A stretch of DNA of 64,000 bases from an uncultured Clostridia bacterium (GTDB lineage: Bacteria; Bacillota; Clostridia; TANB77; CAG-508). Positions 6,203 to 24,062 of the stretch are shown in pieces; positions within the stretch are counted from its first letter, which is position 1, and each line of letters begins with the position of its first letter. The stretch lies in the NCBI GenBank assembly GCA_934119935.1, contig CAKOSX010000002.1, forward strand, positions 44,294 through 108,293, read 5' to 3'. The notes beneath the pieces were generated by a model, which did not search any database, was not told where the DNA came from, and was given only the letters and a program-made list of their open reading frames with translations. Made by a program: the position numbers and the translations under genes.

Positions 6203-7495
<1,293 letters not shown>

Positions 7496-7516
7496 TTTGA
7501 AAAAATTACAAAATTA

Positions 7517-7537
7517 CAAACTTCTGTTTGACAAACG
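7517..7537. promoter_or_regulatory. Putative LexA operator (SOS box-like CAAAC-N4-GTTTG overlapping GTTTG-A-CAAAC)
   Basis: Two overlapping perfect palindromes of the degenerate Gram-positive GAAC-N4-GTTC type, overlapping the -35 of the lexA promoter. Confidence 0.45.
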
Positions 7538-7556
7538 CCTTTTTTTATGATAATAT
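7528..7556 (+). promoter_or_regulatory. lexA promoter (TTGACA-17-TAATAT)
   Basis: -35 TTGACA at 7528-7533, 17-nt spacer, -10 TAATAT. Confidence 0.5.
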
Positions 7557-7587
7557 AGTTGCAGAAATTATTTTAGGAGTGATTAAT

Positions 7588-8247
7588 ATGGCTAGAAAAA
7601 GAGATCCTTTAGAGTTAAATAAAAGAGAAAAGGCTATTTTAAAATTCATTGAAAAGGAACTAAATGAAAATGGATATCCACCTTCTGTAAGAGAGATAGG
7701 AAAAGCAGTTGGATTAAAATCTACTGCAACAGTACACTCTTACCTTGGAAGGCTTGAAGAGGGAGGATATATTTCAAGAAAAGATAAAAAAGGTAGAACT
7801 TTGCAACTTATAAGAGGCGGAAAACCATATAAACCAGCATCTTACGAAGATAAAAGTGTATACTCTGGAAAAGAAATGGTGGAGGTTCCTGTAATTGGAA
7901 GAATAACTGCTGGAGCACCTATATTGGCCGTAGAGAATATAACAGATACATTTCCTATACCTTTAGATTTTATTGGAAATAGCGAATGCTTTATGCTTAC
8001 TGTTAGAGGAGAAAGTATGATAGAAGCAGGAATAATGAATGGAGACTATATTCTTGTAAAGAAGCAAAATACTGCAGAAAATGGCGAGATAGTTGTAGCT
8101 TTAATTGATGATGAGGCAACCGTAAAAACATTTTATAAAGAGAAAGACCATATAAGATTACAACCTGAAAATTCAACAATGGACCCAATAATTGTACCAA
8201 CTTGTGAAATATTAGGAAAAGTTGCAGGTGTATTTAGAAAATTATAA
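7588..8247 (+). CDS. lexA: LexA repressor
   Basis: N-terminal wHTH (PSVREIGKAVGLKSTATVHSYL), C-terminal S24 peptidase with VRGESMIEAGIMNGDYILV and the Ser/Lys dyad region; AGGAG RBS. Confidence 0.9.
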   Translation: MARKRDPLELNKREKAILKFIEKELNENGYPPSVREIGKAVGLKSTATVHSYLGRLEEGGYISRKDKKGRTLQLIRGGKPYKPASYEDKSVYSGKEMVEVPVIGRITAGAPILAVENITDTFPIPLDFIGNSECFMLTVRGESMIEAGIMNGDYILVKKQNTAENGEIVVALIDDEATVKTFYKEKDHIRLQPENSTMDPIIVPTCEILGKVAGVFRKL

Positions 8248-8291
8248 ACAACTGATAAAGATATTTAGAGTTATAATTGGAGAAGCATATT

Positions 8292-8795
8292 ATGGGAAGA
8301 TTAAAAACATTTGGAAAATACATATTGATGATAGTAGCATTCTATGTATTTTCAACAATAGTATCAGCAGGTTTTATAAGAGGAACATATGCAGATATGG
8401 GAGGAAAAGTATATCAAGGAAGCAACCTCTCAGTTCATGTGGATGAAGCAAAATCATCTTTTGTAAATGGACATATTAAAGGAAATATAACAAATAATTC
8501 TAATGAAAACATAACATCAAAGTATGTAAAAATAGAGCTTATTTCCCAAAAAGGCAATAATATATTAAATAAGTATATTAAGATTGACGAATTAAAAGCT
8601 GGAGAAACAAAGAATTTTACAATCAATTTTGAAGCTGAAAATATAAAAACATTTAATATAAGCATTTCAGATGAGTATGTGGATGAAGAATCAAATCTAC
8701 ATATAATTAACTTAGAAGATGCGGAAAATGAAGAAATAAAAAATATATCAATATTCTTAGCAGTAGTAATATTATTAAAATATGTAATTTTATAA
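8292..8795 (+). CDS. Hypothetical membrane-anchored protein
   Basis: GGAGAAG RBS; N-terminal TM helix (ILMIVAFYVFSTIVSAGF) and a C-terminal hydrophobic segment; no recognisable domain. Confidence 0.45.
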   Translation: MGRLKTFGKYILMIVAFYVFSTIVSAGFIRGTYADMGGKVYQGSNLSVHVDEAKSSFVNGHIKGNITNNSNENITSKYVKIELISQKGNNILNKYIKIDELKAGETKNFTINFEAENIKTFNISISDEYVDEESNLHIINLEDAENEEIKNISIFLAVVILLKYVIL

Positions 8796-8825
8796 AGAAT
8801 TAATTGTAGTAAAAAATGTAGTAGA

Positions 8826-8856
8826 AAACAAAAAGTTTTAACTTTTTGTTTTTTAT
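8826..8856 (+). terminator. Rho-independent terminator
   Basis: AAAACAAAAAGTT-tta-AACTTTTTGTTTT hairpin with a T-run. Confidence 0.5.
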
Positions 8857-8921
8857 TGTATAATAAAGAGAGAATCACTTGAAAATTAAAAGTATTATTT
8901 TTAGAAAATCAATAAAAAAGT

Positions 8922-8950
8922 TTGAAATTTACTCTAAGGTGTAATATAAT
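8922..8950 (+). promoter_or_regulatory. Promoter TTGAAA-17-TATAAT upstream of the mreB-like gene
   Basis: Consensus-like -35/-10 with 17-nt spacer. Confidence 0.5.
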
Positions 8951-8993
8951 TGTAACAGTTTCGCAATAATCTTAGATTGAAAGGGAGAGGCAA

Positions 8994-10004
8994 ATGCTAG
9001 AATTTGGACAAGATATAGGGATTGATTTAGGTACAGCTACTGTTATCGCATATGTAAAAGGAAAAGGAATTGTTTTGAGAGAACCATCTGTAGTTGCTGT
9101 TGATAAAGATACTGGTAGTGTATTAGCCGTTGGAAAAGAAGCAAGAAGAATGCTAGGAAGAACTCCTGGAAATATAATCGCTACAAGACCATTAAGAGAT
9201 GGAGTTATATCTGATTATACTGTAACTGAGAAAATGTTGAAATATTTTATAAATAAAATATGTGGAAAATATATATTTGCACCAAGAATAATGATATGTG
9301 TTCCATCTAGAGTAACAGAAGTTGAAAAAAGAGCTGTTATAGATGCTGCAACACAAGCTGGAGCAAGAAAGGTGTATCTAATCGAAGAACCTTTAGCTGC
9401 AGCTATAGGAGCAGGATTAGACATATCTAAACCATGTGGAAACATGGTTGTAGATATTGGAGGAGGAACAACAGATATAGCAATAATATCATTAGGAGGA
9501 ACTGTAATTAGTACATCAATAAAAGTCGCAGGAGACGAATTTGATGAAGCGATTGTTAAGTATGTGAAAAAGAAACACAATATAATAATTGGAGAAAGAA
9601 CAGCAGAAGATCTAAAAATTAATATTGGATGTGTTTATCCAAAGATTCAAGACGTAGAAATGGAAATAAGGGGCAGGGACTTAATAACCGGACTTCCAAA
9701 AACAATTACAGTATACTCAAGTGAAATGTTAGAAGCGCTTACAGAATGCGCTGAACAGATAATTGAAGCTGTTCATTCAATACTAGAAAAAACACCACCA
9801 GAATTATCTGCAGATATAGGAGACAGGGGAATATATATGACTGGTGGAGGCTGCTTAATTGATGGACTTGATAAACTATTGCAGGAAAGAACAGGAATTC
9901 ATGTAATGGTCGCACAAGATTCTGTATCATGTGTAGCGCTTGGAACAGGAAAAGCCTTAGAAAATATGGATATATTAGCTGGAAAAAACAAGAGTGTAAA
10001 ATAA
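8994..10004 (+). CDS. mreB: Rod shape-determining protein MreB/Mbl family
   Basis: Actin-like ATPase motifs IGIDLGTATV, DIGGGTTD; 336 aa. Confidence 0.88.
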   Translation: MLEFGQDIGIDLGTATVIAYVKGKGIVLREPSVVAVDKDTGSVLAVGKEARRMLGRTPGNIIATRPLRDGVISDYTVTEKMLKYFINKICGKYIFAPRIMICVPSRVTEVEKRAVIDAATQAGARKVYLIEEPLAAAIGAGLDISKPCGNMVVDIGGGTTDIAIISLGGTVISTSIKVAGDEFDEAIVKYVKKKHNIIIGERTAEDLKINIGCVYPKIQDVEMEIRGRDLITGLPKTITVYSSEMLEALTECAEQIIEAVHSILEKTPPELSADIGDRGIYMTGGGCLIDGLDKLLQERTGIHVMVAQDSVSCVALGTGKALENMDILAGKNKSVK

Positions 10005-10091
10005 ACTGACTATATGTTCGAATAATGTTGCATTAAATAACAAAAATATAGTATAATTCCATGTAGATTATGTTGAATAAAGGTGAAATAA

Positions 10092-10664
10092 ATGAATAAG
10101 ACAAAAAGAAAAATATTTGAAACATCTATGAAATTATTTGCAGAAAAAGGATATGATGCGACGAGTATTGAAGACATAACTGCTGAAGTAGGTGTAGCAA
10201 AGGGAACATTATACTATCATTTTTCAAGCAAAGAGGAGATATTTGAATTTTTAATTGAAGAAGGAGTTAAACTTCTAAAAAATAGTATAGAAATTAAGAC
10301 AGAAAAACTTGAAAATTCTATAGATAAAATAAAAGCAATTGTATTGATAGAAATTAAAGTTCTTGTTAAATATGAGGATTTTATGACAATTGTTTTAAGT
10401 GAGATATGGAGGAGCGGAGCTAGAAGTTCATTGTGTAAAAAACATGTGTTTGAATATATCAAAATGATAGAGCAGATTGTAGAAGAGGGCATTAAGAATA
10501 ATGAAATAATTAATGGGGACAAAAATGTTATTGCATCTGGAATATTTGGGTTTACATGTTCAAGCTTAATATACAAAATGAGGACAGAAAAAGAAATAAA
10601 TGTACTGGACCTGTATTCTGAAATAGAGAAAACATTTATAAGAAAATTAAAGAAAAACAATTAG
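10092..10664 (+). CDS. TetR/AcrR family transcriptional regulator
   Basis: N-terminal HTH KRKIFETSMKLFAEKGYDATSIEDITAEVGVAKGTLYYHF is the TetR_N signature. Confidence 0.8.
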   Translation: MNKTKRKIFETSMKLFAEKGYDATSIEDITAEVGVAKGTLYYHFSSKEEIFEFLIEEGVKLLKNSIEIKTEKLENSIDKIKAIVLIEIKVLVKYEDFMTIVLSEIWRSGARSSLCKKHVFEYIKMIEQIVEEGIKNNEIINGDKNVIASGIFGFTCSSLIYKMRTEKEINVLDLYSEIEKTFIRKLKKNN

Positions 10665-10695
10665 ATATTTATATTTATATTGTGGGAAAGGAGCA

Positions 10696-10711
10696 AGTTA
10701 GAAAACTAACT
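10696..10711. promoter_or_regulatory. Perfect palindrome AGTTAG-AAAA-CTAACT, candidate TetR operator
   Basis: 6-4-6 inverted repeat between the tetR-family gene and the downstream acyl-CoA synthetase start. Confidence 0.35.
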
Positions 10712-10725
10712 TCAGAGCTAATAAG

Positions 10726-12597
10726 ATGAGAATAATAAGAGATTTTAAAATACCAAACTTTAAATTTAATAAAATAGAAATGAATGATATTCCAAATGTT
10801 GAGGATGTAAAAGTAGATTATACAAAAGTGAAAGAGGCTGAAGAAAAAAAGAACAAAAAGCATCAACCATACCCTGCAACCGAATATAAAACAGTAAAGG
10901 AAATATTTATTCATTCTATGCAAAATTATGCTGATGAAACTTTGGTCCTTCAAAAGCCAAACCACAAAGAGCCATATAAGGAAATAACTTATAAAAAATT
11001 TGGAGAGGATGTAGTAGCGTTAGGTTCAAAACTAATAAAGATGCTTCCAAAAAATGCAAGAGTTGTTGTTGTAAGTGAGACGACATACGATTGGTACGTC
11101 TCTTATATGACAATGCTTTGTGGAGCTGGAATTTTAGTACCAGTCGATAAAGAACTTCCAGAAAATGAATTGGAAAATGTAATAAATAGATCAAAAGCTA
11201 CAGCTGTTATTTATTCTGCAAAGAAAAAAGATGCAATAAAGAAGATAGAAAATTTAATACCAACAGTAAAATATTTCATAGAGATGGACTCTGATGATCA
11301 TATTGTTGATAAGCATATGGGATTCAATTATTTGATAAATGAAGGAAAAGAAATAATTGAAAACGGTGATAATTCATATATGGATATAGAAATAGATCCT
11401 GAGGAATTCAAAATGTTAATATTTACATCAGGCACCACTTCTAAATCAAAAGGAGTTATGATTTGCAATAGAAACCTTGCTGCAAATATAAATGCAGTTT
11501 CTGCATTTGTAAAACTATCTCCATCAGATAGATTATTCTCAGTATTACCATTGCACCATACATATGAATCAACAATAGGCTTTTTGTTGCCATTTGCCTG
11601 TGGATGTTCGGTAGCAATATGCGAAGGATTAAGATATATTGTTCCAAATTTACAAGAATCAAAACCTACGGCCTTATTGGCAGTTCCACTACTAATAGAA
11701 AGCTTGTATAAGAAAATAAATGAAACAATTCATAAGAGCAAAAAAGATGGAATTGTCAACTCAATGATTCACGTTACAAATCTATTGAAGAATGTAAATA
11801 TCGATATAAAAAGAAAAGTATTCAAAGAAATATTAGATAATCTTGGCGGAAATATTAGAATTATAGTTTCTGCTGCAGCTCCAATTGATGCAAAAGTTGC
11901 AAAATGGGTAGAAGATATTGGAATTAAATTTTTACAAGGATATGGACTTACAGAAACTGCTCCAATAGCAGCTTTAACGCCAGAATATGAAGCTTCTAGA
12001 TATGCTTCTACTGGTATTGCAGTTAAAGATACAGATATAAAGCTTAGAAATGTTAATGATGCTGGTGAAGGTGAAATCTTGATAAAAGGACCCACTGTAA
12101 TGTTAGGGTATTATGAAGATGAAGAAGCAACAGCAGAAGTTATGGAAGATGGATATTTCTGCTCTGGAGATATTGGAAAAATTGATTCAGATGGCTACAT
12201 TTATATTACAGGAAGAAGCAAAAATGTAATTGTAACTCAAAATGGTAAGAATATATATCCAGAAGAAATAGAATTGATGTTAGGGGAAATACCAGAAATT
12301 TCAGAATGTATGGTATATGGAAAGAAAGAGTCTGAAACGGATGCTCATGATAAAGAATTAATAATAACAGCAAAAATAATACCAAATTATCAAAAAATTG
12401 AAGAACTATATGGCAAAGATTTATCAGATGATGAAATATACAAAATAATATGGAATAAGGTAAAAGAAAATAATAAAAAACTTACATCATATAAAGCCGT
12501 AAGAAAAATTGAAATAAAGAAAGATGAATTTGAAAAAACTACGACTATGAAGATAAAAAGGTTTGCAGAAATAAACAAGGATAATGCAAAGAAATAG
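10726..12597 (+). CDS. Long-chain fatty acid--CoA ligase (AMP-binding enzyme)
   Basis: AMP-binding motif IFTSGTTSKSKGVM, GYGLTE, C-terminal lid with K; start uncertain (alternative Met at 10780). Confidence 0.8.
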   Translation: MRIIRDFKIPNFKFNKIEMNDIPNVEDVKVDYTKVKEAEEKKNKKHQPYPATEYKTVKEIFIHSMQNYADETLVLQKPNHKEPYKEITYKKFGEDVVALGSKLIKMLPKNARVVVVSETTYDWYVSYMTMLCGAGILVPVDKELPENELENVINRSKATAVIYSAKKKDAIKKIENLIPTVKYFIEMDSDDHIVDKHMGFNYLINEGKEIIENGDNSYMDIEIDPEEFKMLIFTSGTTSKSKGVMICNRNLAANINAVSAFVKLSPSDRLFSVLPLHHTYESTIGFLLPFACGCSVAICEGLRYIVPNLQESKPTALLAVPLLIESLYKKINETIHKSKKDGIVNSMIHVTNLLKNVNIDIKRKVFKEILDNLGGNIRIIVSAAAPIDAKVAKWVEDIGIKFLQGYGLTETAPIAALTPEYEASRYASTGIAVKDTDIKLRNVNDAGEGEILIKGPTVMLGYYEDEEATAEVMEDGYFCSGDIGKIDSDGYIYITGRSKNVIVTQNGKNIYPEEIELMLGEIPEISECMVYGKKESETDAHDKELIITAKIIPNYQKIEELYGKDLSDDEIYKIIWNKVKENNKKLTSYKAVRKIEIKKDEFEKTTTMKIKRFAEINKDNAKK

Positions 12598-12636
12598 TAT
12601 AATACATGTACATAATATAAAAAAATATAAGCAGAA

Positions 12637-12678
12637 AATATTACAGTAATTGGTTATAAAACTACTGTAATATTTTTG
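12637..12678 (+). terminator. Rho-independent terminator
   Basis: 12-bp stem AATATTACAGTA / TACTGTAATATT followed by a T-run. Confidence 0.5.
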
Positions 12679-12797
12679 TAACAAAAGTGTTAGCAAAGTG
12701 TAATAAAAAAACGGGCTATTTCTATTGTTTTTTTTTGTTGAATAATATATAATTATTGTAAATTATAGCGATACATATGAAGAGGAGGAATTTTACA

Positions 12798-13670
12798 ATG
12801 TCTAGATCTGGCATAGTAAATGTAAGAATGGTAATAACAGAGGAAAAGATACTATCAAACATATCAAAAGTGCAAAGAATGATAGACCCTAATAGTAAAA
12901 AACAAATCATACAATTAGAAGATGATGCGTTTTTTAAAGACTTGGTAGAATCTATAAAAACATATTTAATTGAATATCCAAAAAAGAAAAATTTTCCTAA
13001 GAGTGTGTATGATGCAGCTTATGGATTGGTTGAATTTGCAACTAATGAATTTGAAGAAAATACTAAGCAAATTGAAGAACTAATTAGGCAGAGAGAGAAG
13101 AATATTGCACTTTCTGGTGAACTTAAAGACATTCTATCTGTTGTAGTTAATAAAGAAGAAGGCTGGAAGGAAGCGGTAAAAGAATTATCTTCAGATTTTT
13201 CAGAAGATATTTTAGATACTTTAGGAGTAATAGGAAGAGCAAAATCAGATAAATCGCAAAATTATCAAGATGCATTAAAGCTAATAAATGCAAGAATTGC
13301 AAATCTTGAATCAAATTTACATATAGAGATTGATATGGAGAGAATTGAAGATAGATCAAAAGCTTTAAGTTACATTGGAATAGAAGTTGCAGATGCATTA
13401 AAATTAATACCTGCTCCACAAGTAAATGCAAAAGAAGCTGTTAAGGAAAAAACAGAACAAGTTGAAAATGTTGAACAAATTGTTAATGAACAACCTGTAC
13501 AACAAGAACAAGATACACAATACTATGAAACAACAAGGGTTGAAGTAAAACCATCATTATGGCAAAGATTTAAACAAAGCAAATTTGTTAGAACTATTAA
13601 ATACATTATGAAGATAAGAATTGTTCTTGACGTACCAGCATTACCAAGTGCTGATGAAGAAAGAAAATAA
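12798..13670 (+). CDS. Hypothetical protein (charged, Gln/Glu-rich C-terminal region)
   Basis: GGAGG RBS 9 nt upstream of the ATG at 12798; no recognisable domain; predicted helical / coiled-coil. Confidence 0.5.
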   Translation: MSRSGIVNVRMVITEEKILSNISKVQRMIDPNSKKQIIQLEDDAFFKDLVESIKTYLIEYPKKKNFPKSVYDAAYGLVEFATNEFEENTKQIEELIRQREKNIALSGELKDILSVVVNKEEGWKEAVKELSSDFSEDILDTLGVIGRAKSDKSQNYQDALKLINARIANLESNLHIEIDMERIEDRSKALSYIGIEVADALKLIPAPQVNAKEAVKEKTEQVENVEQIVNEQPVQQEQDTQYYETTRVEVKPSLWQRFKQSKFVRTIKYIMKIRIVLDVPALPSADEERK

Positions 13671-13805
13671 TAAAAAACACACTCAAAATGATTGAATAAA
13701 ATTCTACATTTTGGGTGCTTTTTTATTTGTTAAGTTGTGTTGGAAAAATCGTCCAGTCAACGTATTTATTATCATCCTTTTCGAATTTGATCAAAAAGCA
13801 AATAA

Positions 13806-13839
13806 AAAACAGTATCTATATTTCAAGATACTGTTTTTT
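13806..13839. terminator. Bidirectional terminator hairpin (A-run / stem / T-run)
   Basis: ACAGTATCT / AGATACTGT stem flanked by an A-run and a T-run; serves the + strand gene and the minus-strand tRNA transcript. Confidence 0.5.
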
Positions 13840-13925
13840 TGGTGGGCAGAGATGGATTCGAACCATCGTACCCTTACGAGAACAGATTTACAGTCTGCCG
13901 CCTTTAGCCACTCGGCCATCTGCCC
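13840..13925 (-). tRNA. tRNA-Tyr (GTA)
   Basis: Reverse complement reads GGGCAGATGGCCGAGTGGCTAAAGGCGGCAGACTGTAAATCTGTT...GGTTCGAATCCATCTCTGCCCACCA; anticodon loop CTGTAAA, long variable arm, encoded CCA. Confidence 0.85.
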
Positions 13926-13949
13926 ATTTAGCCATTTAAATATAATAAA

Positions 13950-14027
13950 TGGTGCACCCTCAAGGATTCGAACCTTGGACCGACCGGTTATGAGCCGGTT
14001 GCTCTGACCAACTGAGCTAAGGGTGCA
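13950..14027 (-). tRNA. tRNA with CAT anticodon (Met, or Ile2/lysidine type)
   Basis: Reverse complement TGCACCCTTAGCTCAGTTGGTCAGAGCAACCGGCTCATAACCGGTCGGTCCAAGGTTCGAATCCTTGAGGGTGCACCA; anticodon loop CTCATAA; overall resembles Bacillus tRNA-Ile2 (CAU). Confidence 0.8.
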
Positions 14028-14045
14028 TTTCTTAACGCAGTTAAA

Positions 14046-14074
14046 AGTATACAATATTTTTAGAAATATGTCAA
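14046..14074 (-). promoter_or_regulatory. Promoter for the tRNA pair (minus strand TTGACA-17-TATACT)
   Basis: Read on the minus strand: TTGACA tatttctaaaaatattg TATACT, about 11 nt upstream of the tRNA 5' end. Confidence 0.45.
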
Positions 14075-14231
14075 TACATTTTTAAAAAAATCTAAAAAAA
14101 CTCAAAAATAATAGCGTAGTCTGCATGATAAAGGAAAAAACTATTTACTTTTCGACAAAAAAGTGGTAAAATTAATAATACGAGAGATGGAACGACCATC
14201 TCGATAAACATTATAAGGGAGGCTGCATGAT

Positions 14232-14834
14232 ATGCGACCGTATATTGTTGAAATCTTGGGCACCCCCGAAGCGGGGAAAAGCACCAGCGTAAAAAACGTC
14301 AGACGAACGCTCTATGAGAAGGGCTACAAAGTCGGCTGGGTTCGTGAAGCTGGCGAAATCGTGCCTGATGCACTGAAAACGGGCAATGCATCAGGAAACG
14401 TCTGGATGACCATGAATGCACTTCAGGGCATCTGGGAAGAAGCCCATAGTGACCGAGACATTGTCTTGGTCGAGCGTGGGACGGTGGATGCTTCTTTCTG
14501 GAATCACTTGTACTCCAGTATGGGTGAGTTTTCGGAGGAAGAATGTTCAGCTTTTGAACACCTCTTCAAGGTACTCAAAGCTGAACCAGATTGCATTCTC
14601 TTTCTGACAGTTTCCGCAGAGGAAAGTATCAGACGGAGAGGTGGCGAGGGTCATCTTGTGACTAAAGCGTTCATTGAACGTTTTAACAACGAGATCAACA
14701 AATTCTTGCCTACGGTTCCCATAAAGCAGGAAATGCTTAATACTTGCGGTATGAGCACGTCGCAGGTACACGATTGGATGCTCGAGACGATTGAAAGTGG
14801 TTATTCTGCTTTCAAGACCCAGATGAAGGGTTAA
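14232..14834 (+). CDS. Deoxynucleoside kinase-like P-loop kinase (dNK/dGK family), horizontally acquired
   Basis: Walker A GTPEAGKST; ER(S)-like motif LVERGTVDASFW; Arg-rich lid SIRRRGGEG as in dCK/dGK; 200 aa, same size as Bacillus Dck/Dgk. GC about 50% versus about 30% for neighbours, with foreign codon usage (CTG, GGC, CGC); GGGAGG RBS. Confidence 0.6.
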   Translation: MRPYIVEILGTPEAGKSTSVKNVRRTLYEKGYKVGWVREAGEIVPDALKTGNASGNVWMTMNALQGIWEEAHSDRDIVLVERGTVDASFWNHLYSSMGEFSEEECSAFEHLFKVLKAEPDCILFLTVSAEESIRRRGGEGHLVTKAFIERFNNEINKFLPTVPIKQEMLNTCGMSTSQVHDWMLETIESGYSAFKTQMKG

Positions 14835-14842
14835 ATTCAACA

Positions 14843-14877
14843 ACGGGTGGCGGGGGATATGTTACGTATCCCCCGTT
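14843..14877 (+). terminator. GC-rich hairpin downstream of the kinase gene (putative terminator)
   Basis: CGGGGGATA-tgttacg-TATCCCCCG, 9-bp GC stem; no clear T-run. Confidence 0.4.
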
Positions 14878-14908
14878 ACCTGTATAAATTTAAAATTTGG
14901 AGGAAAAT

Positions 14909-15304
14909 ATGAAGATTTCAACCAAGGGAAGATATGCATTAGCAATAATGCTTGATTTAGCTATGTATAATTCAGATGAATATATATCATTGAAAGACAT
15001 CGCAACAAGACAAGAGGTTTCAATAAAATATTTAGAGAGGATAATAGCAATATTAAATAAAGCTGGATATGTTAAAAGCTCTAGGGGAAATGCTGGAGGC
15101 TATAGACTCACAAGAAAGCCGGAAGAATATAAGGTGGGAGATATTTTAAGAACGGCTGAAGGTGATTTGGCACCAACAACATGTGTTCAAGAAGGATGCC
15201 ATAAGCAAGATATCTGCTTAACATATTCTTTCTGGCAGGGGTTAGATAATGCGATTGAAAACTATGTTGATAGTAAAACTTTAGCGGATTTGATAAAAAA
15301 ATAG
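14909..15304 (+). CDS. Rrf2 family transcriptional regulator (IscR/CymR-like, Cys-containing)
   Basis: MKISTKGRYALAIMLDLA... wHTH; three Cys (CVQEGC...C) positioned like IscR Fe-S ligands; GGAGG RBS. Host-like GC. Confidence 0.8.
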   Translation: MKISTKGRYALAIMLDLAMYNSDEYISLKDIATRQEVSIKYLERIIAILNKAGYVKSSRGNAGGYRLTRKPEEYKVGDILRTAEGDLAPTTCVQEGCHKQDICLTYSFWQGLDNAIENYVDSKTLADLIKK

Positions 15305-15307
15305 ATA

Positions 15308-15346
15308 AAAGACGAACTCTTATTTTTTAATTAAGAATTCGTCTTT
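15308..15346. terminator. Bidirectional terminator between convergent genes
   Basis: AAAGACGAA ... TTCGTCTTT 9-bp stem with an AT-rich loop. Confidence 0.4.
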
Positions 15347-15431
15347 TATCTTGGAAAAATGTACATTTTTTTCTCCGACCCCAGTTTGTATCTTTTATCT
15401 TGGAAAAATGTACATTTTTTTCTCCGTCCCC
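15343..15431. repeat. 49-bp tandem direct repeat x2 containing the palindrome AAAATGTACATTTT
   Basis: CTTTTATCTTGGAAAAATGTACATTTTTTTCTCCG(A/T)CCCC occurs twice, 49 nt apart, with one mismatch; further AATGTAC(A/C) motifs at 15435-15457. Confidence 0.6.
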
Positions 15432-15457
15432 GAAATGTACCAAAATGTACAAGTGTG

Positions 15458-16171
15458 CTACCATTTGGCGTTTGTTATTTCTTCGTTTAGTACATCTGAC
15501 TGTTCTTGAGTTATGTACTTGTATTCTAACATTGATGAAACGACTTTACGTTGTCTGCTCTGGGTCAAATTGAAATTTACTGTAGGAGCATATACGCTTG
15601 GTGCATTTGGAATTCCGGCAAGCATTGTGGCATCGTAAAGAGTCATGTCTTTTGTTTCTTTTTTTAGATAGCCTTCGCAGGCTTCTTTTATTCCATAATA
15701 GCCGTTTCCAAAGTATATTGTGTTTACATATAATTCTAAAATGTCGTCTTTCGAGTAATCTTTTTCGAGTTTGAAACTTAGAATTACTTCTGCTACTTTA
15801 CGACTTACAACATCATCTTCAGATATGAAGTATAAGTTTTTTGCTGTTTGCTGAGTAATTGTGCTACCACCTTCTTTAAATTCTTTCTGCTTTATGTTAC
15901 TGACTATTGCACGAGCTAGAGCAATTGGATCGAGTGCTCCATGATTGTAATATCTGTGGTCTTCAACTGCAATTACTGCATTTTTGTAATAGTCTGGTAA
16001 ATCTTTTAAAGATACGAAGCTTTCATCTGATTTTATAGATGAAATTTTATCTTCAAGACTTATTGATGATAGTCTTGAGTCATACAACTTTTTTCCATTC
16101 ATATAGAATACACTGCACACAATGATAATGATGATTAATAAAAATAATAAAAGTCTTCTTATAAATTTCAT
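15458..16171 (-). CDS. Monofunctional peptidoglycan glycosyltransferase (GT51, MtgA-like)
   Basis: N-terminal TM anchor; GT51 motifs AVIAVEDHRYYNHGALD and GGSTITQQ. Confidence 0.75.
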   Translation of the reverse strand: MKFIRRLLLFLLIIIIIVCSVFYMNGKKLYDSRLSSISLEDKISSIKSDESFVSLKDLPDYYKNAVIAVEDHRYYNHGALDPIALARAIVSNIKQKEFKEGGSTITQQTAKNLYFISEDDVVSRKVAEVILSFKLEKDYSKDDILELYVNTIYFGNGYYGIKEACEGYLKKETKDMTLYDATMLAGIPNAPSVYAPTVNFNLTQSRQRKVVSSMLEYKYITQEQSDVLNEEITNAKW

Positions 16172-16437
16172 ATAAAATTCATTCCTTTCAAAAAATGTTA
16201 AAGGTTTTACTAGTTAAAAAAACAAGCGTTTTTAACTAAATACTTTAAGCAAAGAGTTCTTTAATGTTAATTTTTACTAACAATATTATAACATATAGAA
16301 GATGAATTTAAAGTGACTTTATAAAAAATAAAAATTTTGTCAAAAAGGTTTGACAAATTTGGTTTGTTAATACATAATATAGAATGATGATATTAAACGA
16401 TGAGATGAATTTGATAAGTTACGAAGGAGGAATTTTA

Positions 16438-19008
16438 ATGTACGTATTTAATAAAATAACAGTAACTCCACAACTGCCAGAAAGAATTAATAAGTTGTCT
16501 GAAATTGCAGGAAACCTATGGTGGGCTTGGAATACAGATTTCTTAAAATTATTTAAGATAATTGATGGTGATTTATGGGAGACTGTTGGAAAGAATCCTG
16601 TTAAGTTTTTAAAACTTGTTTCACAGGAGAGATTGGAAAATGTAGCCGAAAATCCAGAATTTTTGAAAGAATATGATAAAATTGCAAATGATTTTTATGA
16701 CTACATGAACAGCAAGACAACATGGTTTAAGAAAAATTATCCAGATAATAAGAATGATTTGATTGCATATTTTTCAGCAGAATATGGATTAGACCAAATT
16801 TTATCAATATATTCTGGTGGACTTGGAATTTTATCAGGAGACCACTTGAAGTCAGCAAGTGATTTAGGTATATCACTTGTGGCTGTTGGATTATTATATA
16901 AAAAAGGATTCTTCCATCAAATTATAAATGGTTATGGACAACAATATGAAGAAGATAGAGAAAATGATATAGATACTCTACCAATATATCCTGTAAAAGA
17001 TGTAGAAGGTAAAGATTTATTAGTGTATGTAAATATGCCTAAAAAAAGAGTTTATCTAAAGGTTTGGCAAGTTAATGTTGGAAGAGTTAAACTATATTTA
17101 ATGGATTCCGATATAGATGCAAACATTCCTGAATACAGAGGTATAACAGCTCATTTATATGGTGGAAACCAAGAAATGAGAATCCAACAAGAAATTGTTC
17201 TTGGAATGGCTGGAACAAGTCTTCTAAAAACTTTGGGATTAAATCCTACTGTATACCATATGAATGAAGGACATTCTGCGTTCTTAATATTAGAATTAAT
17301 GAAGAATATTATTAAAGAGAAACAAGTAAGTTTCGATATGGCAGAGGAGATTGTTGCTGCAAAAACAGTATTTACAACGCATACTCCGGTTCCAGCAGGA
17401 AATGATATATTCCCATTATCTTTAGTTGAAACATATTTTAAAGATTATTGGAATAGATTTTCTATTACCAAAGAAGAATTTTTCAGATTAGGAATGAAGC
17501 CAAATGCAGATTTATCTAATACTGGATTTAACATGGGAATTCTTGCACTAAAATTCTCTGGAAAGAAGAATGGAGTAAGTAAATTACATGGTGCAGTTTC
17601 TAGAGAATTATTTGGAGAGGTATGGCCAAACATAGCTCCAAATGAGGCTCCAATAGATTATGTAACAAATGGAATTCACACTTGTACATGGCTTGCACCA
17701 AATTTAAAGAGATTATTTAATGAATATTTAAAACCATATTGGCAAGATGATATTAAGAATGACACAACCTGGCAGAAGATTGCAGACATTCCAGACCAAG
17801 AATTATGGAATGCTCATATGGAAAGAAAAGTTAAGCTTTTAAAATTAGTAAAGGAAAATATAACAAATAGATTAAAAAGAGAAGGATATCGTTATAGTGA
17901 TATAAATGATATTACATCAAAATTAGATCCAAATGCTTTAACAATAGGATTTTCTAGAAGATTTGCTACATATAAGAGAGCTACTTTAATATTTAAAGAT
18001 TTAGAGAGAATAACACAAATACTAAATGAGGCTGGAAAACCAGTTCAAATAATATTTGCAGGAAAGGCGCATCCATCAGATAACGGAGGAAAAGATTTAA
18101 TAAGATATATTCACGAATTATCTATGAAGCCTCAATTTAAAGGTAAGATTTTCTTACTAGAAAACTACAACATAGGTATATCTAAATATTTAGTAAGTGG
18201 TGTTGATGTATGGCTAAATAATCCAAGAAGACCAATGGAAGCATCTGGTACATCAGGACAAAAGGCAGCTGTAAATGGCGTTATAAACTTTAGCGTGCTT
18301 GATGGCTGGTGGGCAGAAGGATACAACCAGAAAAATGGTTGGACAATAGGAACCAATGCCGAATATTCTTCTTATGAAGAACAAGATAATGCTGATAGCG
18401 AGAGTATTTATCAAACATTAGAAAATAAAATAATTCCAACATTCTTCGATAAAGATGAAAACGGAATATCTAAGAGATGGATGGAAATAATGAAGCAATC
18501 TATAATGTCTAATGCCGGAAGATACAGCACTGCTAGAATGCTTATAGATTATACAAATAAATTCTATATGCCACTTTGCAATTTGTACAACAAATACTAC
18601 ACAGATTTATCATCAGTTGCAGAATTTAATAGTTGGAAAAACAATTTATATTCGAACTGGAATGATATAACGATAAAACAAGAAAAGGGTAACTTAGATA
18701 ATATCACAGTAGATGCTGGAAACAATATTACAGTTAGATGTAAAGTATATCTACCAAACATTGATAAAAACTCTATAGAAGCACAAGTTTACTACGGGCA
18801 AATAATGGAAAATGGTATAGTAGATAAAATTCAAATAATACCAATGAATTTAATAGGCAGTGACGATGAAAAGAGAGAATATGAGTATGAAGCAACAGTT
18901 GAACTTACAACTGGCGGAAACTATGGTTATACATTTAGAGTAATGCCTAAAAATGAAATGTTATTAGACCCAGCAAACTTGGATTTAGTAAAATGGATAA
19001 CAAAATAA
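16438..19008 (+). CDS. glgP: Alpha-glucan phosphorylase (GT35, GlgP family)
   Basis: 857 aa from the ATG at 16438 (GAAGGAGG RBS); GT35 core with the pyridoxal-phosphate region GKAHPSDNGGKDLI. Confidence 0.85.
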   Translation: MYVFNKITVTPQLPERINKLSEIAGNLWWAWNTDFLKLFKIIDGDLWETVGKNPVKFLKLVSQERLENVAENPEFLKEYDKIANDFYDYMNSKTTWFKKNYPDNKNDLIAYFSAEYGLDQILSIYSGGLGILSGDHLKSASDLGISLVAVGLLYKKGFFHQIINGYGQQYEEDRENDIDTLPIYPVKDVEGKDLLVYVNMPKKRVYLKVWQVNVGRVKLYLMDSDIDANIPEYRGITAHLYGGNQEMRIQQEIVLGMAGTSLLKTLGLNPTVYHMNEGHSAFLILELMKNIIKEKQVSFDMAEEIVAAKTVFTTHTPVPAGNDIFPLSLVETYFKDYWNRFSITKEEFFRLGMKPNADLSNTGFNMGILALKFSGKKNGVSKLHGAVSRELFGEVWPNIAPNEAPIDYVTNGIHTCTWLAPNLKRLFNEYLKPYWQDDIKNDTTWQKIADIPDQELWNAHMERKVKLLKLVKENITNRLKREGYRYSDINDITSKLDPNALTIGFSRRFATYKRATLIFKDLERITQILNEAGKPVQIIFAGKAHPSDNGGKDLIRYIHELSMKPQFKGKIFLLENYNIGISKYLVSGVDVWLNNPRRPMEASGTSGQKAAVNGVINFSVLDGWWAEGYNQKNGWTIGTNAEYSSYEEQDNADSESIYQTLENKIIPTFFDKDENGISKRWMEIMKQSIMSNAGRYSTARMLIDYTNKFYMPLCNLYNKYYTDLSSVAEFNSWKNNLYSNWNDITIKQEKGNLDNITVDAGNNITVRCKVYLPNIDKNSIEAQVYYGQIMENGIVDKIQIIPMNLIGSDDEKREYEYEATVELTTGGNYGYTFRVMPKNEMLLDPANLDLVKWITK

Positions 19009-19126
19009 TTAGACCAAAAGAAAAGCCTTGACGCACAAGGCTTTTTGTAATATAATGGTTACATAATTTTAAAGAGAAAATGCAAAGTTTTGGAAAAGCT
19101 TTGTTTTTTAGAAAGGGTTGTTAAAT

Positions 19127-20617
19127 ATGGCAGACATAAAAGAATTAATGCAAGTACGTAGAGACAAAATGCAAAAGTTAATAGATAATGGTGTAAATGT
19201 ACACCCAGAGAGATATGAGAGAACACATCAAATTAAAGAAGCAAGAGAATTACCAGATGGAACAAAAGATGTTTCGATTGCTGGAAGAGTAATGTCTAAG
19301 AGAAAATTAGGAAAAATAAGCTTCTTAGATTTAAGAGATTTAGAAGGACATCTTCAATTAGTTATTAAAAAAGAAGATTTGGGAGAAGATGTATATAAAT
19401 TCTTACACGAAACAGTTGATATTGGTGATTTCATTGGAGTAAAAGGAGAAATATTTACAACTCAAGCGGGAGAAAAATCACTTCAAGTTTATGAATATAC
19501 ATTCTTAGGAAAGGCAATTCGTCCACTTCCAGAAAAATTCCATGGTTTAACAGACCAAGATGCAGTATACAGAGAGAGACATCTTGATTTAATAATGAAC
19601 GATGATGCTAAAAAGAGATTTGTATTAAGAACAAAGTTTATCAGATTAATGAGAGAATTCTTAGATACACATGAATTTTTAGAGGTAGACACACCAGTTC
19701 TTCAAAATACAGCTTCTGGAGCAACAGCAAAACCATTCATAACACACCACAATGCATTAGACATGGACGTATATTTAAGAATATCTCCAGAATTAACATT
19801 GAAAAAGCTTATAATTGGTGGATTTTCAAATGTATATGAAATTGCAAGAGACTTCAGAAATGAGGGAATGGATGCAAACCATTTACAAGACTTCACAATG
19901 GTTGAAGGATACAGTGCTTATTGGTGCTATAGAGATAATATGAAATTTTTAAGAGAAATGGTTATATATATATTATCAAAATTATTCGATGGAAACTTGA
20001 ATATCAAAATTGGAGAGCAAGAAATTGACTTCGGAGGAGAATGGCAAGTAGTATCATTCAGAGATTTAATACTTAAAGACTGTGGAATAGATATTGACAA
20101 ATTCGAAACAGCAGAAAGCTTACTTGCAGAGATAAAAGCAAAAGGAATAAAATTAGAGGCAGACAACTTAGAACAATTAGGAAGAGGAAATTTAATAGAT
20201 ACATTATACAAAAAGGTAAGCAGACCAAACATAATAAATCCAACATATCTAATTGAACACCCAATAGATTTATCTCCACTTGCTAGAAGCAATGATGAAA
20301 ATCCAAAATTGACAGATAGATTCCAATTAGTAGTAAATGGACAAGAAATAATAAATGGATATTCAGAGCTTGTAGACTGTGACGAACAAGAAAGAAGATT
20401 TATAGAGCAAGCTGAATTAAAGGCAAATGGTGATGAAGAAGCAATGAGCATAGACACAGAATATATAAGAGCTATGCAATATGGTATGCCACCAATTTCT
20501 GGTTGGGGACTTGGAATAGATAGATTCTTACAATTCTTAACAAACAGTGATAACATAAGAGATGTAGTTCTATACCCATTAATGAAACCAAGAGCAGCAG
20601 AAGAAAGCGAAGAATAA
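19127..20617 (+). CDS. lysS: Lysine--tRNA ligase (class II)
   Basis: N-terminal OB anticodon-binding domain; class II motifs FLEVDTPVLQ, RDFRNEGMD, GLGIDR. Confidence 0.93.
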   Translation: MADIKELMQVRRDKMQKLIDNGVNVHPERYERTHQIKEARELPDGTKDVSIAGRVMSKRKLGKISFLDLRDLEGHLQLVIKKEDLGEDVYKFLHETVDIGDFIGVKGEIFTTQAGEKSLQVYEYTFLGKAIRPLPEKFHGLTDQDAVYRERHLDLIMNDDAKKRFVLRTKFIRLMREFLDTHEFLEVDTPVLQNTASGATAKPFITHHNALDMDVYLRISPELTLKKLIIGGFSNVYEIARDFRNEGMDANHLQDFTMVEGYSAYWCYRDNMKFLREMVIYILSKLFDGNLNIKIGEQEIDFGGEWQVVSFRDLILKDCGIDIDKFETAESLLAEIKAKGIKLEADNLEQLGRGNLIDTLYKKVSRPNIINPTYLIEHPIDLSPLARSNDENPKLTDRFQLVVNGQEIINGYSELVDCDEQERRFIEQAELKANGDEEAMSIDTEYIRAMQYGMPPISGWGLGIDRFLQFLTNSDNIRDVVLYPLMKPRAAEESEE

Positions 20618-20626
20618 TAGATTGAA

Positions 20627-20658
20627 AGAGTGACTTAATTTTAAGTTGCTCTTTTTGT
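20627..20658 (+). terminator. Putative terminator after lysS
   Basis: Imperfect stem AGAGTGACTT / AAGTTGCTCT followed by TTTTTGTGTGG. Confidence 0.4.
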
Positions 20659-20725
20659 GTGGTATAATTGTTAAATAAATATCATAAAAATATTGTTGAA
20701 AAAAGAAAGTATCGGTTTGGAATTA

Positions 20726-20754
20726 TTGACTATGGCAACATAATGTTGTAAAAT
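20726..20754 (+). promoter_or_regulatory. Promoter TTGACT-17-TAAAAT upstream of the beta-CASP gene
   Basis: Host-like AT-rich consensus promoter about 70 nt upstream of the GC-rich ORF. Confidence 0.5.
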
Positions 20755-20826
20755 AAAAACATGAAATGTTTGCATAAAACATTTTAAAGCTAATTAACTT
20801 TATTATTTTTTGATTGGAGGATTATT

Positions 20827-22242
20827 ATGGGTTCAAAAGACCGGCTCTACGCAGACATCATGGCTGTGCATCCAGAGGTAACTGGCTCATGCAATCTGGT
20901 TATTGTAAAACAGCCAGATAATAGCACGGTCAAATTTGTTGTTGATTGTGGCCTCTTTCAAGAGAGGCAGTACAGCAAGAACAATGAGAGTTTGCCTTTC
21001 ATCCCGGCTAACATCGATTTTTGTTTGGTTACGCATAATCATGTGGATCATGTTGGTCGCTTGCCTTTTATGGTGAGTAAGGGTTACAACCAAGAGATCT
21101 ATATGACTGAGACAACTGCAAAGCTCTTGCCTTTGGCTTTGGAAGATAGCTATAAGGTGCTAAGAGATGTTGCAAAACGGCAGAACCATTCGCCGTTGTA
21201 CAGCGAGAGTGATGTGTCCCAAACCATGAGACTGATTCATCCTTGCAAGTATAATGAGACTATCCAGATTCGCCCGAATATTAAGGCAACATTCTTTATG
21301 AATGGCCACTTGATGGGAGCTTCTAGCATTCTCGTTCAAATCAGTTGGGAGGGATACGAAACAATTAATTTGTTCTTTAGCGGAGACTACAACAACAAGA
21401 ACATGTTCTTTGATGTACCAGACCTTCCGGATTGGGTACTTGACCTTCCACTTACGTTGGTTCAGGAATCCACTTATGGAAACATGGACTCCTATGAGGT
21501 TACGAGCTGCTTTAAGCAGAATGTACTGAGGTGCCTCGAACATGGTGGTACGATTGTTGCACCAGTCTTTTCGCTGGGACGTTCGCAGGAAATTCTGTAT
21601 GAGGTTAAATGCATGCAGGACGATGGCTCTTTGGATGTAAATGTGCCGATTTATTTCGATGGAAAGCTTGGCATCAGATATACCACGCTTTACTTGAAAG
21701 ATGGACTGGACATCAAGGAAGATATGAAAAACTTCCTTCCGAAGAACCTTACCTTTGTGGACAAGGTTAATCGTGGCGAAGTCTTGACGAGTACTATGCC
21801 TAAGATTATCCTTACCACTTCTGGCATGGGATCGTATGGTCCTGCACAGGTGTATATTCCAGAGTATTTGACCAGAAGAAATTCGCTTATCCACTTCACG
21901 GGCTATACCACAGAAGGTACGCTCGGTGCAAGACTTAAAGAGGCTGAAGTCGGCACGGCAGTTCAGATTGGTGGTACGCTTGTTAAAAAGTATGCACAGG
22001 TCGAATACACCACCGAATATTCTGCTCACGCAAAGGCAGATGAGATGATTGACTTCCTCAAGAAGTTCAAACACCTTAAGTTGGTCCTTGTGAATCACGG
22101 AGAGGCTGATACAAAGCAAATATTTGCAGAAAGGATTATCAACGAAGTTGACACTGAAAGGGTCGGAATTCTGGGAAGTGGTTACTTCTTCCGTGTGAAT
22201 CACGAAGGCCTTATCAAGAGCCTGTCGACAAAATTCGAATAA
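20827..22242 (+). CDS. Metallo-beta-lactamase fold beta-CASP family nuclease (RNase J / CPSF-like), foreign GC
   Basis: HxHxDH motif THNHVDHVGRLP; beta-CASP motif A (QESTYG) and C-terminal His motif (YSAHAKADE); 471 aa; GC about 44% with foreign codon usage; GGAGG RBS. Confidence 0.75.
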   Translation: MGSKDRLYADIMAVHPEVTGSCNLVIVKQPDNSTVKFVVDCGLFQERQYSKNNESLPFIPANIDFCLVTHNHVDHVGRLPFMVSKGYNQEIYMTETTAKLLPLALEDSYKVLRDVAKRQNHSPLYSESDVSQTMRLIHPCKYNETIQIRPNIKATFFMNGHLMGASSILVQISWEGYETINLFFSGDYNNKNMFFDVPDLPDWVLDLPLTLVQESTYGNMDSYEVTSCFKQNVLRCLEHGGTIVAPVFSLGRSQEILYEVKCMQDDGSLDVNVPIYFDGKLGIRYTTLYLKDGLDIKEDMKNFLPKNLTFVDKVNRGEVLTSTMPKIILTTSGMGSYGPAQVYIPEYLTRRNSLIHFTGYTTEGTLGARLKEAEVGTAVQIGGTLVKKYAQVEYTTEYSAHAKADEMIDFLKKFKHLKLVLVNHGEADTKQIFAERIINEVDTERVGILGSGYFFRVNHEGLIKSLSTKFE

Positions 22243-22263
22243 AATAATTCATACAACGTGCTG

Positions 22264-22286
22264 GGGCTCCCTTTTTGGGAGCCTCA
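22264..22286 (+). terminator. GC-rich hairpin terminator after the beta-CASP gene
   Basis: GGGGCTCCC-ttttt-GGGAGCCTC. Confidence 0.45.
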
Positions 22287-22345
22287 GTTTGTGCTATATA
22301 AGGAAAAATATTATGTAAATATTTATTAAAATTTGAAAGGATTCA

Positions 22346-22374
22346 TTGAAAATTGTAATTATAAATGATATAAT
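22346..22374 (+). promoter_or_regulatory. Promoter TTGAAA-17-TATAAT upstream of the PIN-PhoH gene
   Basis: Consensus-like -35/-10 with 17-nt spacer in the AT-rich spacer between the two GC-rich ORFs. Confidence 0.5.
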
Positions 22375-22398
22375 ATAAGAAGTTCGAATACACACACA

Positions 22399-22424
22399 GT
22401 TCTGAAACATACTATTTTCAGAAC
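22399..22424 (+). promoter_or_regulatory. Perfect 9-bp inverted repeat GTTCTGAAA-N8-TTTCAGAAC in the 5'UTR of the PIN-PhoH gene
   Basis: Lies between the -10 element and the RBS; either an operator or a leader hairpin. Confidence 0.4.
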
Positions 22425-22450
22425 GCAATTTGCAAAGGAGTTATATACAA

Positions 22451-23812: not shown

Positions 23813-23893
23813 TAGACAGGAGAAGAGAAAAAATTAAAAAAGTAGAAAGTACAAGATTTTATTCTGGAAATCTGCTAAACTCCATAGCAAAGA

Positions 23894-23924
23894 AACAGGA
23901 GGCGAAATTTTCGCCTCCTGTTTT
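23894..23924 (+). terminator. Rho-independent terminator after the PIN-PhoH gene
   Basis: Perfect 14-bp stem AACAGGAGGCGAAA / TTTCGCCTCCTGTT followed by TTTTCC. Confidence 0.65.
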
Positions 23925-24062
23925 CCTATGATATTGAAAAATGTTTTAAACATAGAGAAGAAGCTCTTTTTAGAATAATTTTTTTGCCCTAAATGCTTGT
24001 ATTTTTGGGCTGTTTGTTATAAAATATTGTCAATATTATGTTAAAAAGATAAGGAGAAAAAT

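Follow-up and report, generated by a model that had tools for sequence, protein, structure and literature searches.

How does a gene with nearly 48% GC come to lie next to two tRNA genes in very AT-rich DNA, and what does it encode? The question is raised by an open reading frame (ORF) in a stretch of 64,000 nucleotides (nt) from an uncultured Clostridia bacterium (contig CAKOSX010000002.1, positions 44,294 to 108,293), which as a whole is called the window here. An initial annotation had taken the gene for a laterally acquired single-gene insertion that encodes a deoxynucleoside-kinase-like enzyme. The reading that explains the data best, with a probability of roughly 0.6, is that the product is a resident kinase of an undescribed family, and that the divergent, GC-rich allele found in the window has been exchanged by homologous recombination. 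The gene in question is the following:

14232-14834, plus strand: kinase ORF with ATG start and 47.9% GC, encoding a P-loop kinase of 200 amino acids (aa) from an unnamed family that resembles thymidylate kinases (TMPK) and deoxynucleoside kinases (dNK); window-type allele.

The compositional anomaly is as strong as had been claimed. The ORF has 47.9% GC (51, 40 and 53% at the three codon positions) as compared to 31.9% in the 64-kb window, and it coincides with the 603-nt stretch of highest GC in the entire window. Relative to the 44 other non-overlapping window ORFs of at least 150 aa, in which the GC content at third codon positions (GC3) is 20.6 +/- 7.1%, its z-scores are 4.4 for GC and 4.6 for GC3. 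Codon usage deviates likewise, with CTC making up 36% of the Leu codons versus 2% in the window background, ATC reaching 45% versus 7%, ACG 46% versus 8%, and TTA 0% versus 51%.

Whether the gene has been inserted can be judged from its surroundings and from the same region in relatives, whose loci are given with L numbers. The elements that frame the gene are:

13840-13925, minus strand: tRNA-Tyr(GTA), conserved upstream neighbour.
13950-14026, minus strand: tRNA-Met(CAT), conserved upstream neighbour; the tRNA pair is found also in L020, L021, L023 and L005.
14144-14172, plus strand: promoter-like site of the kinase gene, TTTACT-17-TAAAAT with an extended TG at the -10 element, detected by a promoter scan and conserved in CAG:245-type genomes.
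14843-14883, plus strand: GC-rich hairpin behind the stop codon, an inverted repeat with an 18-bp stem (folding energy -32.1 kcal/mol, z = -6.4).
14909-15304, plus strand: Rrf2-family regulator (Pfam assignment), conserved downstream neighbour in the window's clade, 92-94% identical in CAG:245-type genomes.

A kinase homologue occupies the same slot in every relative examined (L005, L006-L011, L020-L024, L083-L087), always in the order tRNA-Met, kinase, Rrf2, transglycosylase, and an empty site between tRNA-Met and Rrf2 was not found in any of them. In the CAG:245-type genomes (L006-L011, L020-L024, L083-L086) the order is the same as in the window over a longer range: a FadD-like gene, a hypothetical gene (hyp290), tRNA-Tyr, tRNA-Met, kinase, Rrf2, transglycosylase on the minus strand, GlgP, an aminoacyl-tRNA synthetase, beta-CASP, PIN-PhoH and RecJ. 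The window and the CAG:245 types can be aligned over the promoter of the kinase gene (TTTACT...TG.TAAA), its start region and the stem of its terminator (CGGGGG...CCCCCG), and synteny with conserved promoter and terminator extends also to L022 and L087. As the relatives share gene order, promoter, start region and terminator, the slot is ancestral, and the tRNA pair, which had been regarded as an integration neighbourhood, is there by old synteny.

A recent horizontal insertion of one foreign deoxynucleoside kinase, a mini-island at a tRNA integration hot spot, is hardly credible under these circumstances. It would agree with the strongly anomalous composition and codon usage and with the two adjacent tRNA genes, features that the gene has in common with tRNA-linked genomic islands, and also with a certain plasticity of the neighbourhood: beyond the tRNA genes, the CAG:245-type genomes show an RpiB-like gene indel and duplicated tRNA-Tyr 3' segments. 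Unlike in such islands, however, there is neither an empty site in relatives nor an integrase or recombinase among the window ORFs of 11-19 kb, and att-like direct repeats do not flank the kinase gene, as the initial annotation had already noticed. Also, the slot is filled in every relative with a homologous promoter, start region and terminator, relatives of the family were found neither in phage and plasmid collections (tblastn) nor in the viral contigs of IMG/VR (pattern search and tblastn), and the protein is not a member of the dNK family PF01712. What the window carries is one allele of a resident gene. Short repeats near the kinase unit (D2/D3) had been considered as att sites as well and were judged to be chance matches or leader homology.

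The indel itself is the sole gene-content difference nearby. An RpiB/LacAB-like gene of 211 aa lies between hyp290 and tRNA-Tyr in CAG:245-type genomes (6814-7449 in L086, in the region 4592-5460 of L020 and L023) and is absent from the window, where the corresponding site is at about 13672-13739. In L020 and L023, segments of the tRNA-Tyr 3' end and terminator (13800-13861 of the window) are duplicated near this gene.

If the slot is old, the allele in it has nevertheless a different history than its surroundings. The proteins encoded around the kinase gene are 86-99.6% identical between the window and L086, with a 167-aa hypothetical protein (68%) as the exception, but the kinase is only 54-56% identical between the window and the CAG:245 types (54% versus L086). 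A sliding profile of nt identity to L086 reveals a nested structure:

6990-7590 and 15590-24700: background, 94-99% identity.
7590-15590: divergent haplotype block of about 8 kb from LexA to Rrf2, about 82% identity with a range of about 80-85%.
13990-14790: kinase unit, the divergence peak of the block, 60-67% identity.

The left edge of the divergent block depends on the strain; it is at about 6.1 kb in the comparison with L083 and at about 7.6 kb with L086. The gene of the 167-aa hypothetical protein (8292-8792) forms a second divergence dip within the block.

Three-taxon comparisons of the window (W), the CAG:245-type genomes (C) and the outgroup L022 (O) gave these Kimura distances:

Rrf2: W-C 0.07, W-O 0.27, C-O 0.27.
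Transglycosylase: W-C 0.05, W-O 0.28, C-O 0.25.
Kinase: W-C 0.64, W-O 0.68, C-O 0.41.

The flanking genes thus give the topology ((W,C),O), whereas the window kinase attaches near the middle of the path between C and O and not beside C. The site patterns say the same, with 17 sites at which W equals C, about as many (14) at which W equals O, and 40 at which C equals O. With an outgroup consensus, six quartet sites group C and O against W and one groups W with C, and in neighbour-joining trees W is sister to C+O with a bootstrap of 99.5%, W+C receiving 0%. Since distances, site patterns and trees agree, an allele replacement from outside the C+O clade is favoured over an acceleration of the resident gene. 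Two marks of an allele replacement are found, namely a gene tree that conflicts with the flanks and a mosaic identity profile with discrete boundaries.

The acceleration scenario has to be weighed in some detail. According to it, the window allele descended vertically from an ancestor that is common also to the CAG:245 types and then evolved exceptionally fast under a gene-specific drive that raised its GC content as well, for example selection on the composition of the mRNA, or a recombination hot spot with GC-biased gene conversion. The kinase is a fast gene in general (4.6x the rate of the HD_4 hydrolase that neighbours it in other lineages, about 1.6x that of Rrf2), its GC is elevated in all of 67 family loci and differs between sister alleles, a GC-rich donor is not found in the databases, and other GC-rich genes of the window, those of the beta-CASP and PIN-PhoH proteins, are stable parts of the genome. 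All this would fit. However, descent together with the flanks, which are near-conspecific, does not sit well with a window kinase that is no closer to C than to O (0.64 versus 0.68), with the lacking excess of W=C over W=O sites, with the absence from W of the six shared-derived sites of C+O, and with the 0% bootstrap for W+C. A dN/dS ratio (nonsynonymous to synonymous rate) of 0.10 makes positive selection an improbable driving force, and a sharp switch of identity within the ORF is a signature of recombination and not an effect of rate. Divergence in place is thus possible but on the unlikely side.

This switch is seen in comparisons among window-type alleles:

14232-14490, plus strand: hypervariable mosaic 5' segment of the kinase ORF, codons 1-87, with 82.4% nt identity to L005 versus 98.5% for codons 88-200.

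The window and L005 are 96% identical over 4.4 kb. The synonymous divergence (dS) of the kinase gene is 0.34 in this comparison, that of its neighbours 0.09, 0.10 and 0.03, and it is also this comparison that gives the dN/dS of 0.10. Among the three window-type alleles (L087 included), 52 of the 60 variable sites fall into the first 260 nt, with interleaved patterns and mostly at third positions. These substitutions show a functional gene under purifying selection, which at the same time is a mosaic of several deep allele lineages. In the scenario of homologous allele exchange, a divergent and GC-richer allele would have been imported into the ancestral syntenic slot from an unsampled related lineage, with the conserved flanks, the promoter and the terminator serving as framework for the exchange, and the gene would continue to exist as a recombination mosaic among strains. 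This resembles xenologous allele replacements at dimorphic loci in the conserved slot and flanks, the local divergence peak within a larger block, the tree conflict, the strain-dependent boundaries and the intragenic mosaicism. It differs from these in that a small cytoplasmic kinase is replaced and not a surface, restriction or capsule determinant, and in that the incoming allele has another composition.

The proposed lateral acquisition can consequently be kept in part: the composition and codon usage are non-native, and the allele was not inherited vertically with its flanks as judged by phylogeny, but homologues in the slot speak against a single-gene insertion. The initial annotation had also held that the gene would merely be an odd native one if close relatives carried it at the same place with equally high GC. 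Relatives do carry it there, and with elevated GC (39.6% versus 30%), but this is not equally high, and the proteins are 55% identical.

What, then, does the high GC content mean? In all 67 of 67 family loci, the kinase gene is GC-elevated relative to the flanking ORFs, on average by 5.6 points of GC and 9.6 of GC3. The window-type kinase is at the extreme (+13 GC, +26 GC3), CAG:571 and some others are similar, and in some lineages the gene is essentially native. Nor is it the only such gene in the window, as had been implied, because two nearby genes have a GC3 of about 50%:

20827-22239: beta-CASP/RNase J-like hydrolase of the metallo-beta-lactamase type, 471 aa, 44% GC, GC3 about 50%.
22451-23809: PIN+PhoH ATPase, 453 aa, 44% GC, GC3 about 50%.

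The CAG:245-type genomes have both genes with equally high GC and with 96-97% nt identity to the window. By codon usage, the two genes fall into one class with both kinase alleles (r 0.43-0.68 within the class), and this class has a correlation of about 0 with native genes (native-native 0.73-0.89). Their similar codon usage could suggest one recent foreign donor for all three GC-rich genes, but the beta-CASP protein shows a smooth, vertical-looking identity ladder with a GC elevation that varies among distant relatives, and a common donor is not supported. A swapped tract exists also in the beta-CASP gene: the 5' part of the L087 gene is 77-84% identical to the window (20800-21600 versus 8001-8800 of L087), the neighbouring genes 97-98%. 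Given that all 67 loci are GC-elevated and that two nearby core genes are GC-rich in both allele backgrounds, high GC is a poor marker of horizontal gene transfer here. It recurs in a few genes of these genomes, is tied to allele exchange, and does not mark a recent foreign insertion. Candidate causes are unsampled GC-richer donors, biased gene conversion, and selection on mRNA.

The protein had been assigned to the dCK/dGK-type deoxynucleoside kinases, and the fold and the motif logic of this assignment hold, whereas the family membership does not. The motifs GTPEAGKST (residues 10-18), LVERGTVDASFW (79-90) and SIRRRGGEG (132-140) are present as described. However, PF01712 gave no match to the window protein at E<=10 and has weak precomputed matches only to a few distant family members. 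No curated Pfam or NCBIfam threshold was reached: AAA_28 (PF13521) scored best with 22 bits (cut-off 27), Thymidylate_kin (PF02223) reached 19.6 bits (cut-off 27), and TIGR00041 20 bits (cut-off 83.25). The PADLOC anti-phage models returned zero families at E<=1, and a search of the PDB with the single sequence gave insignificant matches only, among them homeobox proteins at E~0.1, which are noise. By the curated tests, the protein thus is a member of neither the dNK, the TMPK nor the NadR family.

By homology search, an unnamed family of proteins of about 200 aa was found, whose members are annotated solely as "hypothetical protein", and a literature search brought up nothing specific on this family or on the pairing of a kinase with a small alarmone hydrolase. 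An alignment of 36 family sequences has as invariant residues E7, T11-P-E-A-G-K16, E39, R82-G83, R135-R136-G-G-E139-G140 and V143. The family profile matched PDB entries over the full length, with the Mycoplasma deoxyadenosine kinase 2jaq (2.3e-9) and the Aquifex thymidylate kinase 2pbr (4.4e-9). The AlphaFold (AF2) model is confident (pLDDT 92.2), and Foldseek aligned it with the Giardia deoxyadenosine kinase (dAK), human and bacterial TMPKs, and dCK at TM scores of 0.63-0.75. E39, R82 and R135-R136/E139 align to the matching regions of 2jaq, with a register near E39 that is uncertain by about three residues, and the central motif is (D/E)RG, not ERS. The protein has the dNK/nucleoside monophosphate (NMP) kinase fold with P-loop and lid, and the TMPK fold applies likewise; according to model and profiles, it would be a dNK/TMPK/NadR ribosylnicotinamide kinase (RNK)-like fold with the full catalytic motif set, equidistant from the three families. 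The predicted catalytic residues are K16 of the P-loop, Glu39 after strand 2, Arg82 of the (D/E)RG motif and the dNK-like lid RRRGGEG. Glu39 is where dNKs have their catalytic base and TMPKs their REP motif.

The likeness to the dNK family (PF01712: human dCK/dGK, Drosophila dNK, Mycoplasma dAK, Bacillus Dck/Dgk) comprises the size of about 200 aa, the P-loop, the acidic residue after strand 2, the (E/D)R motif and a lid of the R..RG.xE type. In contrast to the dNKs, the P-loop is GTPEAGK and not GNI(A/G)(A/S)GK, the third motif residue is Gly and not Ser, the RRRGGEG lid is invariant in and specific to the family of the window protein, and the identity to solved dNKs is 14-17%. From thymidylate kinases (PF02223/TIGR00041) the protein differs by a P-loop acidic residue that is shifted by one position, by the dNK-like lid, and by the location of its gene outside the usual tmk context; from the RNK domain of NadR it differs by the lack of an NMNAT or helix-turn-helix domain, and there are no NAD-salvage genes adjacent to it in the window. 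An exhaustive profile search yielded 65 cluster representatives below 1e-30, plus a halo of remoter relatives. One group in this halo (P0171, P0178, P0196 and similar proteins) consists of fusions of 420-480 aa with a kinase domain that has GTPKAGKT and DRG.FD motifs and no RRRGGEG lid, and with a C-terminal region that weakly matches NUDIX; in P0131, the kinase domain is duplicated in tandem. These kinase-NUDIX fusions were not used as a guide to function, since they miss the lid.

The family is narrowly distributed. When each GTDB species was scanned with one genome, 63 loci were obtained, nearly all from metagenome-assembled genomes (MAGs) of uncultured gut Clostridia (Clostridium sp. CAG:245, CAG:508, CAG:571, Ca. 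Scatovivens), the remainder being a few "Bacilli/Mollicutes/Tenericutes" MAGs. CAG-245 is a genus in the uncultured, genome-reduced order TANB77 (PMC11680825). Contigs that encode the exact window protein occur in at least 44 collection blocks, among them many from Hadza gut metagenomes with identical context, and the 90% cluster of the protein is encoded on hundreds of contigs.

The genes next to the kinase are informative with regard to function. Among 75 tabulated loci, near-duplicate strain loci included, a HAD phosphatase of about 165 aa with DMDGT and DDDH motifs is encoded 70-85 nt downstream on the same strand in 32, and a RelA/SpoT-type HD_4 hydrolase of about 186 aa upstream, mostly divergently, in 25. 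The two never occur at one locus, and NUDIX neighbours are found in a few loci. In the basal L077 and L079, the HD_4 gene is on the same strand as the kinase gene, from which it is separated by 5 nt or which it overlaps by 4 nt. HAD partner and kinase diverge in step (rate ratio 1.04), in contrast to HD_4, relative to which the kinase evolves 4.6 times faster. Weak NT5C matches were obtained for 16 of 29 HAD partners and PNKP-phosphatase matches for 11 of 29. The pairing of the kinase with an NT5C-like 5'-nucleotidase (32 loci) mirrors the substrate cycle of dNKs and 5'-nucleotidases. On contig CAKPKP010000002.1 (L076/L078), two kinase paralogues lie about 8 kb apart, one by a HAD and one by an HD_4 gene; their ORFs as extracted give truncated products of 147 and 127 aa. 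In the window's clade the kinase gene lies upstream of Rrf2, with neither partner adjacent. The only HD_4 match of the window is in a 731-aa ORF of RelA/SpoT size (25785-27980), whose L087 counterpart has the full RelA/SpoT domain set, and it was dismissed as a partner gene.

Because all partners are of nucleotide phosphohydrolase types, and considering the fold, the substrate most likely is of the nucleoside or nucleotide type. The product would be a functional enzyme of the NMP-kinase/deoxynucleoside-kinase fold that phosphorylates a small molecule with ATP, in a family that would be confined to the TANB77/CAG-245 type of uncultured low-GC gut Clostridia, and in most lineages the kinase and the adjacent HAD (NT5C/PNKP-like) or HD_4 enzyme would form a phosphorylation/dephosphorylation pair. 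A different use of the same genes is conceivable: the kinase could be a polynucleotide 5'-kinase in a split system for RNA or DNA end healing together with the HAD as a PNKP-type 3'-phosphatase or the HD enzyme as a cyclic-phosphodiesterase type, or a toxin-like kinase that is reversed by the hydrolase. The PNKP matches (best 5e-7), the alternative phosphoesterases as partners, and the divergent alleles with their rapid evolution, which are typical of conflict genes, would suit this, as would the role of small alarmone hydrolases as antitoxins that is described in a report on toxSAS systems (PMC7229694). Yet the NT5C matches outnumber those to PNKP, PADLOC gave no match, the HD_4 neighbours, in contrast to antitoxins, are highly conserved (mean 74%, with many pairs at 90-92%) and in most cases transcribed divergently, and the window's clade retains the kinase without an adjacent hydrolase. 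Such an end-healing or toxin function has only a slim chance of being correct.

Several points weigh against the reading of a resident nucleoside or nucleotide kinase with an exchanged allele. The donor lineage was not found, as no protein between 95% and 56% identity exists among 5.8 billion, and the window-type allele is absent from the 63 loci in GTDB species representatives, although the search pattern RRGGEGHLVT would match it. The family is known from AT-rich hosts only, which do not account for an allele with 48% GC. The kinase evolves fast by its nature (4.6x HD_4), and distance and neighbour-joining methods are sensitive to long-branch attraction; the species relationship is based on about 17 kb of flanks. 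With regard to function, the partner is not adjacent in the window's clade, which weakens the transfer of functional conclusions from other clades, and with dNK, TMPK and NadR-RNK being equally close, nucleoside, NMP and nicotinamide-riboside acceptors are not distinguished by sequence.

A broader and speculative idea, to which a rather small probability is assigned, is that the GTPEAGK/RRRGGEG kinases and their exclusive HD_4/HAD partners form an undescribed cycle in which a nucleotide is phosphorylated and dephosphorylated, and which is specific to gut bacteria of the TANB77 type. Conceivable substrates are nucleotides of a non-canonical or signalling kind, NAD precursors and nucleoside analogues. 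Allelic dimorphism, intragenic recombination and atypical GC would in this case come from long-term balancing or diversifying selection, for example by phage or inter-bacterial conflict, and not from neutral import.

The remaining elements around the gene concern its expression and its neighbours:

14046-14074: promoter-like site of the tRNA pair, TTGACA-17-TATACT, near-consensus (promoter scan).
14184-14202, plus strand: stem-loop GAGATGG-aacga-CCATCTC in the 5' untranslated region (folding energy -12.3 kcal/mol, z = -2.5).
14217-14222, plus strand: ribosome-binding site GGGAGG, read from the sequence, 9 nt upstream of the ATG.

The kinase ORF starts about 160-185 nt from the promoter of the tRNA pair, and its transcript is predicted to begin near 14179. 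Both hairpins and the ribosome-binding site had been pointed out before and are indeed there. The 5' stem-loop is specific to the window-type leader, the L020 leader folding without an equivalent, and possibly acts as a 5' mRNA stabiliser. The hairpin behind the stop codon has a core stem, CGGGGG..CCCCCG, that is conserved in alignments with CAG:245-type genomes; its U-tract is weak, and the strict terminator scan did not call it, so that it is likely a leaky terminator or 3' stabiliser. An Rfam scan of 13500-15500 at E<=1 returned nothing besides the tRNA pair, so neither a riboswitch nor a leader family. The Rrf2 gene is compositionally native (GC 34%, GC3 26%), as had been stated. Its start is the ATG at 14909, 8 nt past a GGAGG and backed by homologues and called genes, whereas the mechanical ORF list had a TTG at 14897. 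Between the convergent Rrf2 and transglycosylase genes, two 41-nt direct repeats with a spacing of 49 nt (15342-15431) each contain a perfect palindrome, AAAAATGTACATTTTT, and a related half-site is at 13702-13714. The region 15300-15440 is highly variable among strains, with 40 differences to L005. The palindromic repeats may be an operator or another repeat element.

With regard to the enzyme, the fold and the evolutionary process are known; what is new is an undescribed family and its unusual population-genetic signature. As a caution on method, a GC-rich gene by a tRNA in a very AT-rich genome need not be an island. The abundance of TANB77/CAG-245 has been linked to immunotherapy response (PMC11680825). 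These uncultured bacteria with reduced genomes are common inhabitants of the human gut and are probably dependent on their neighbours. A conserved kinase family that is restricted to them and linked to nucleotide phosphohydrolases is a target for the study of nucleotide and cofactor salvage.

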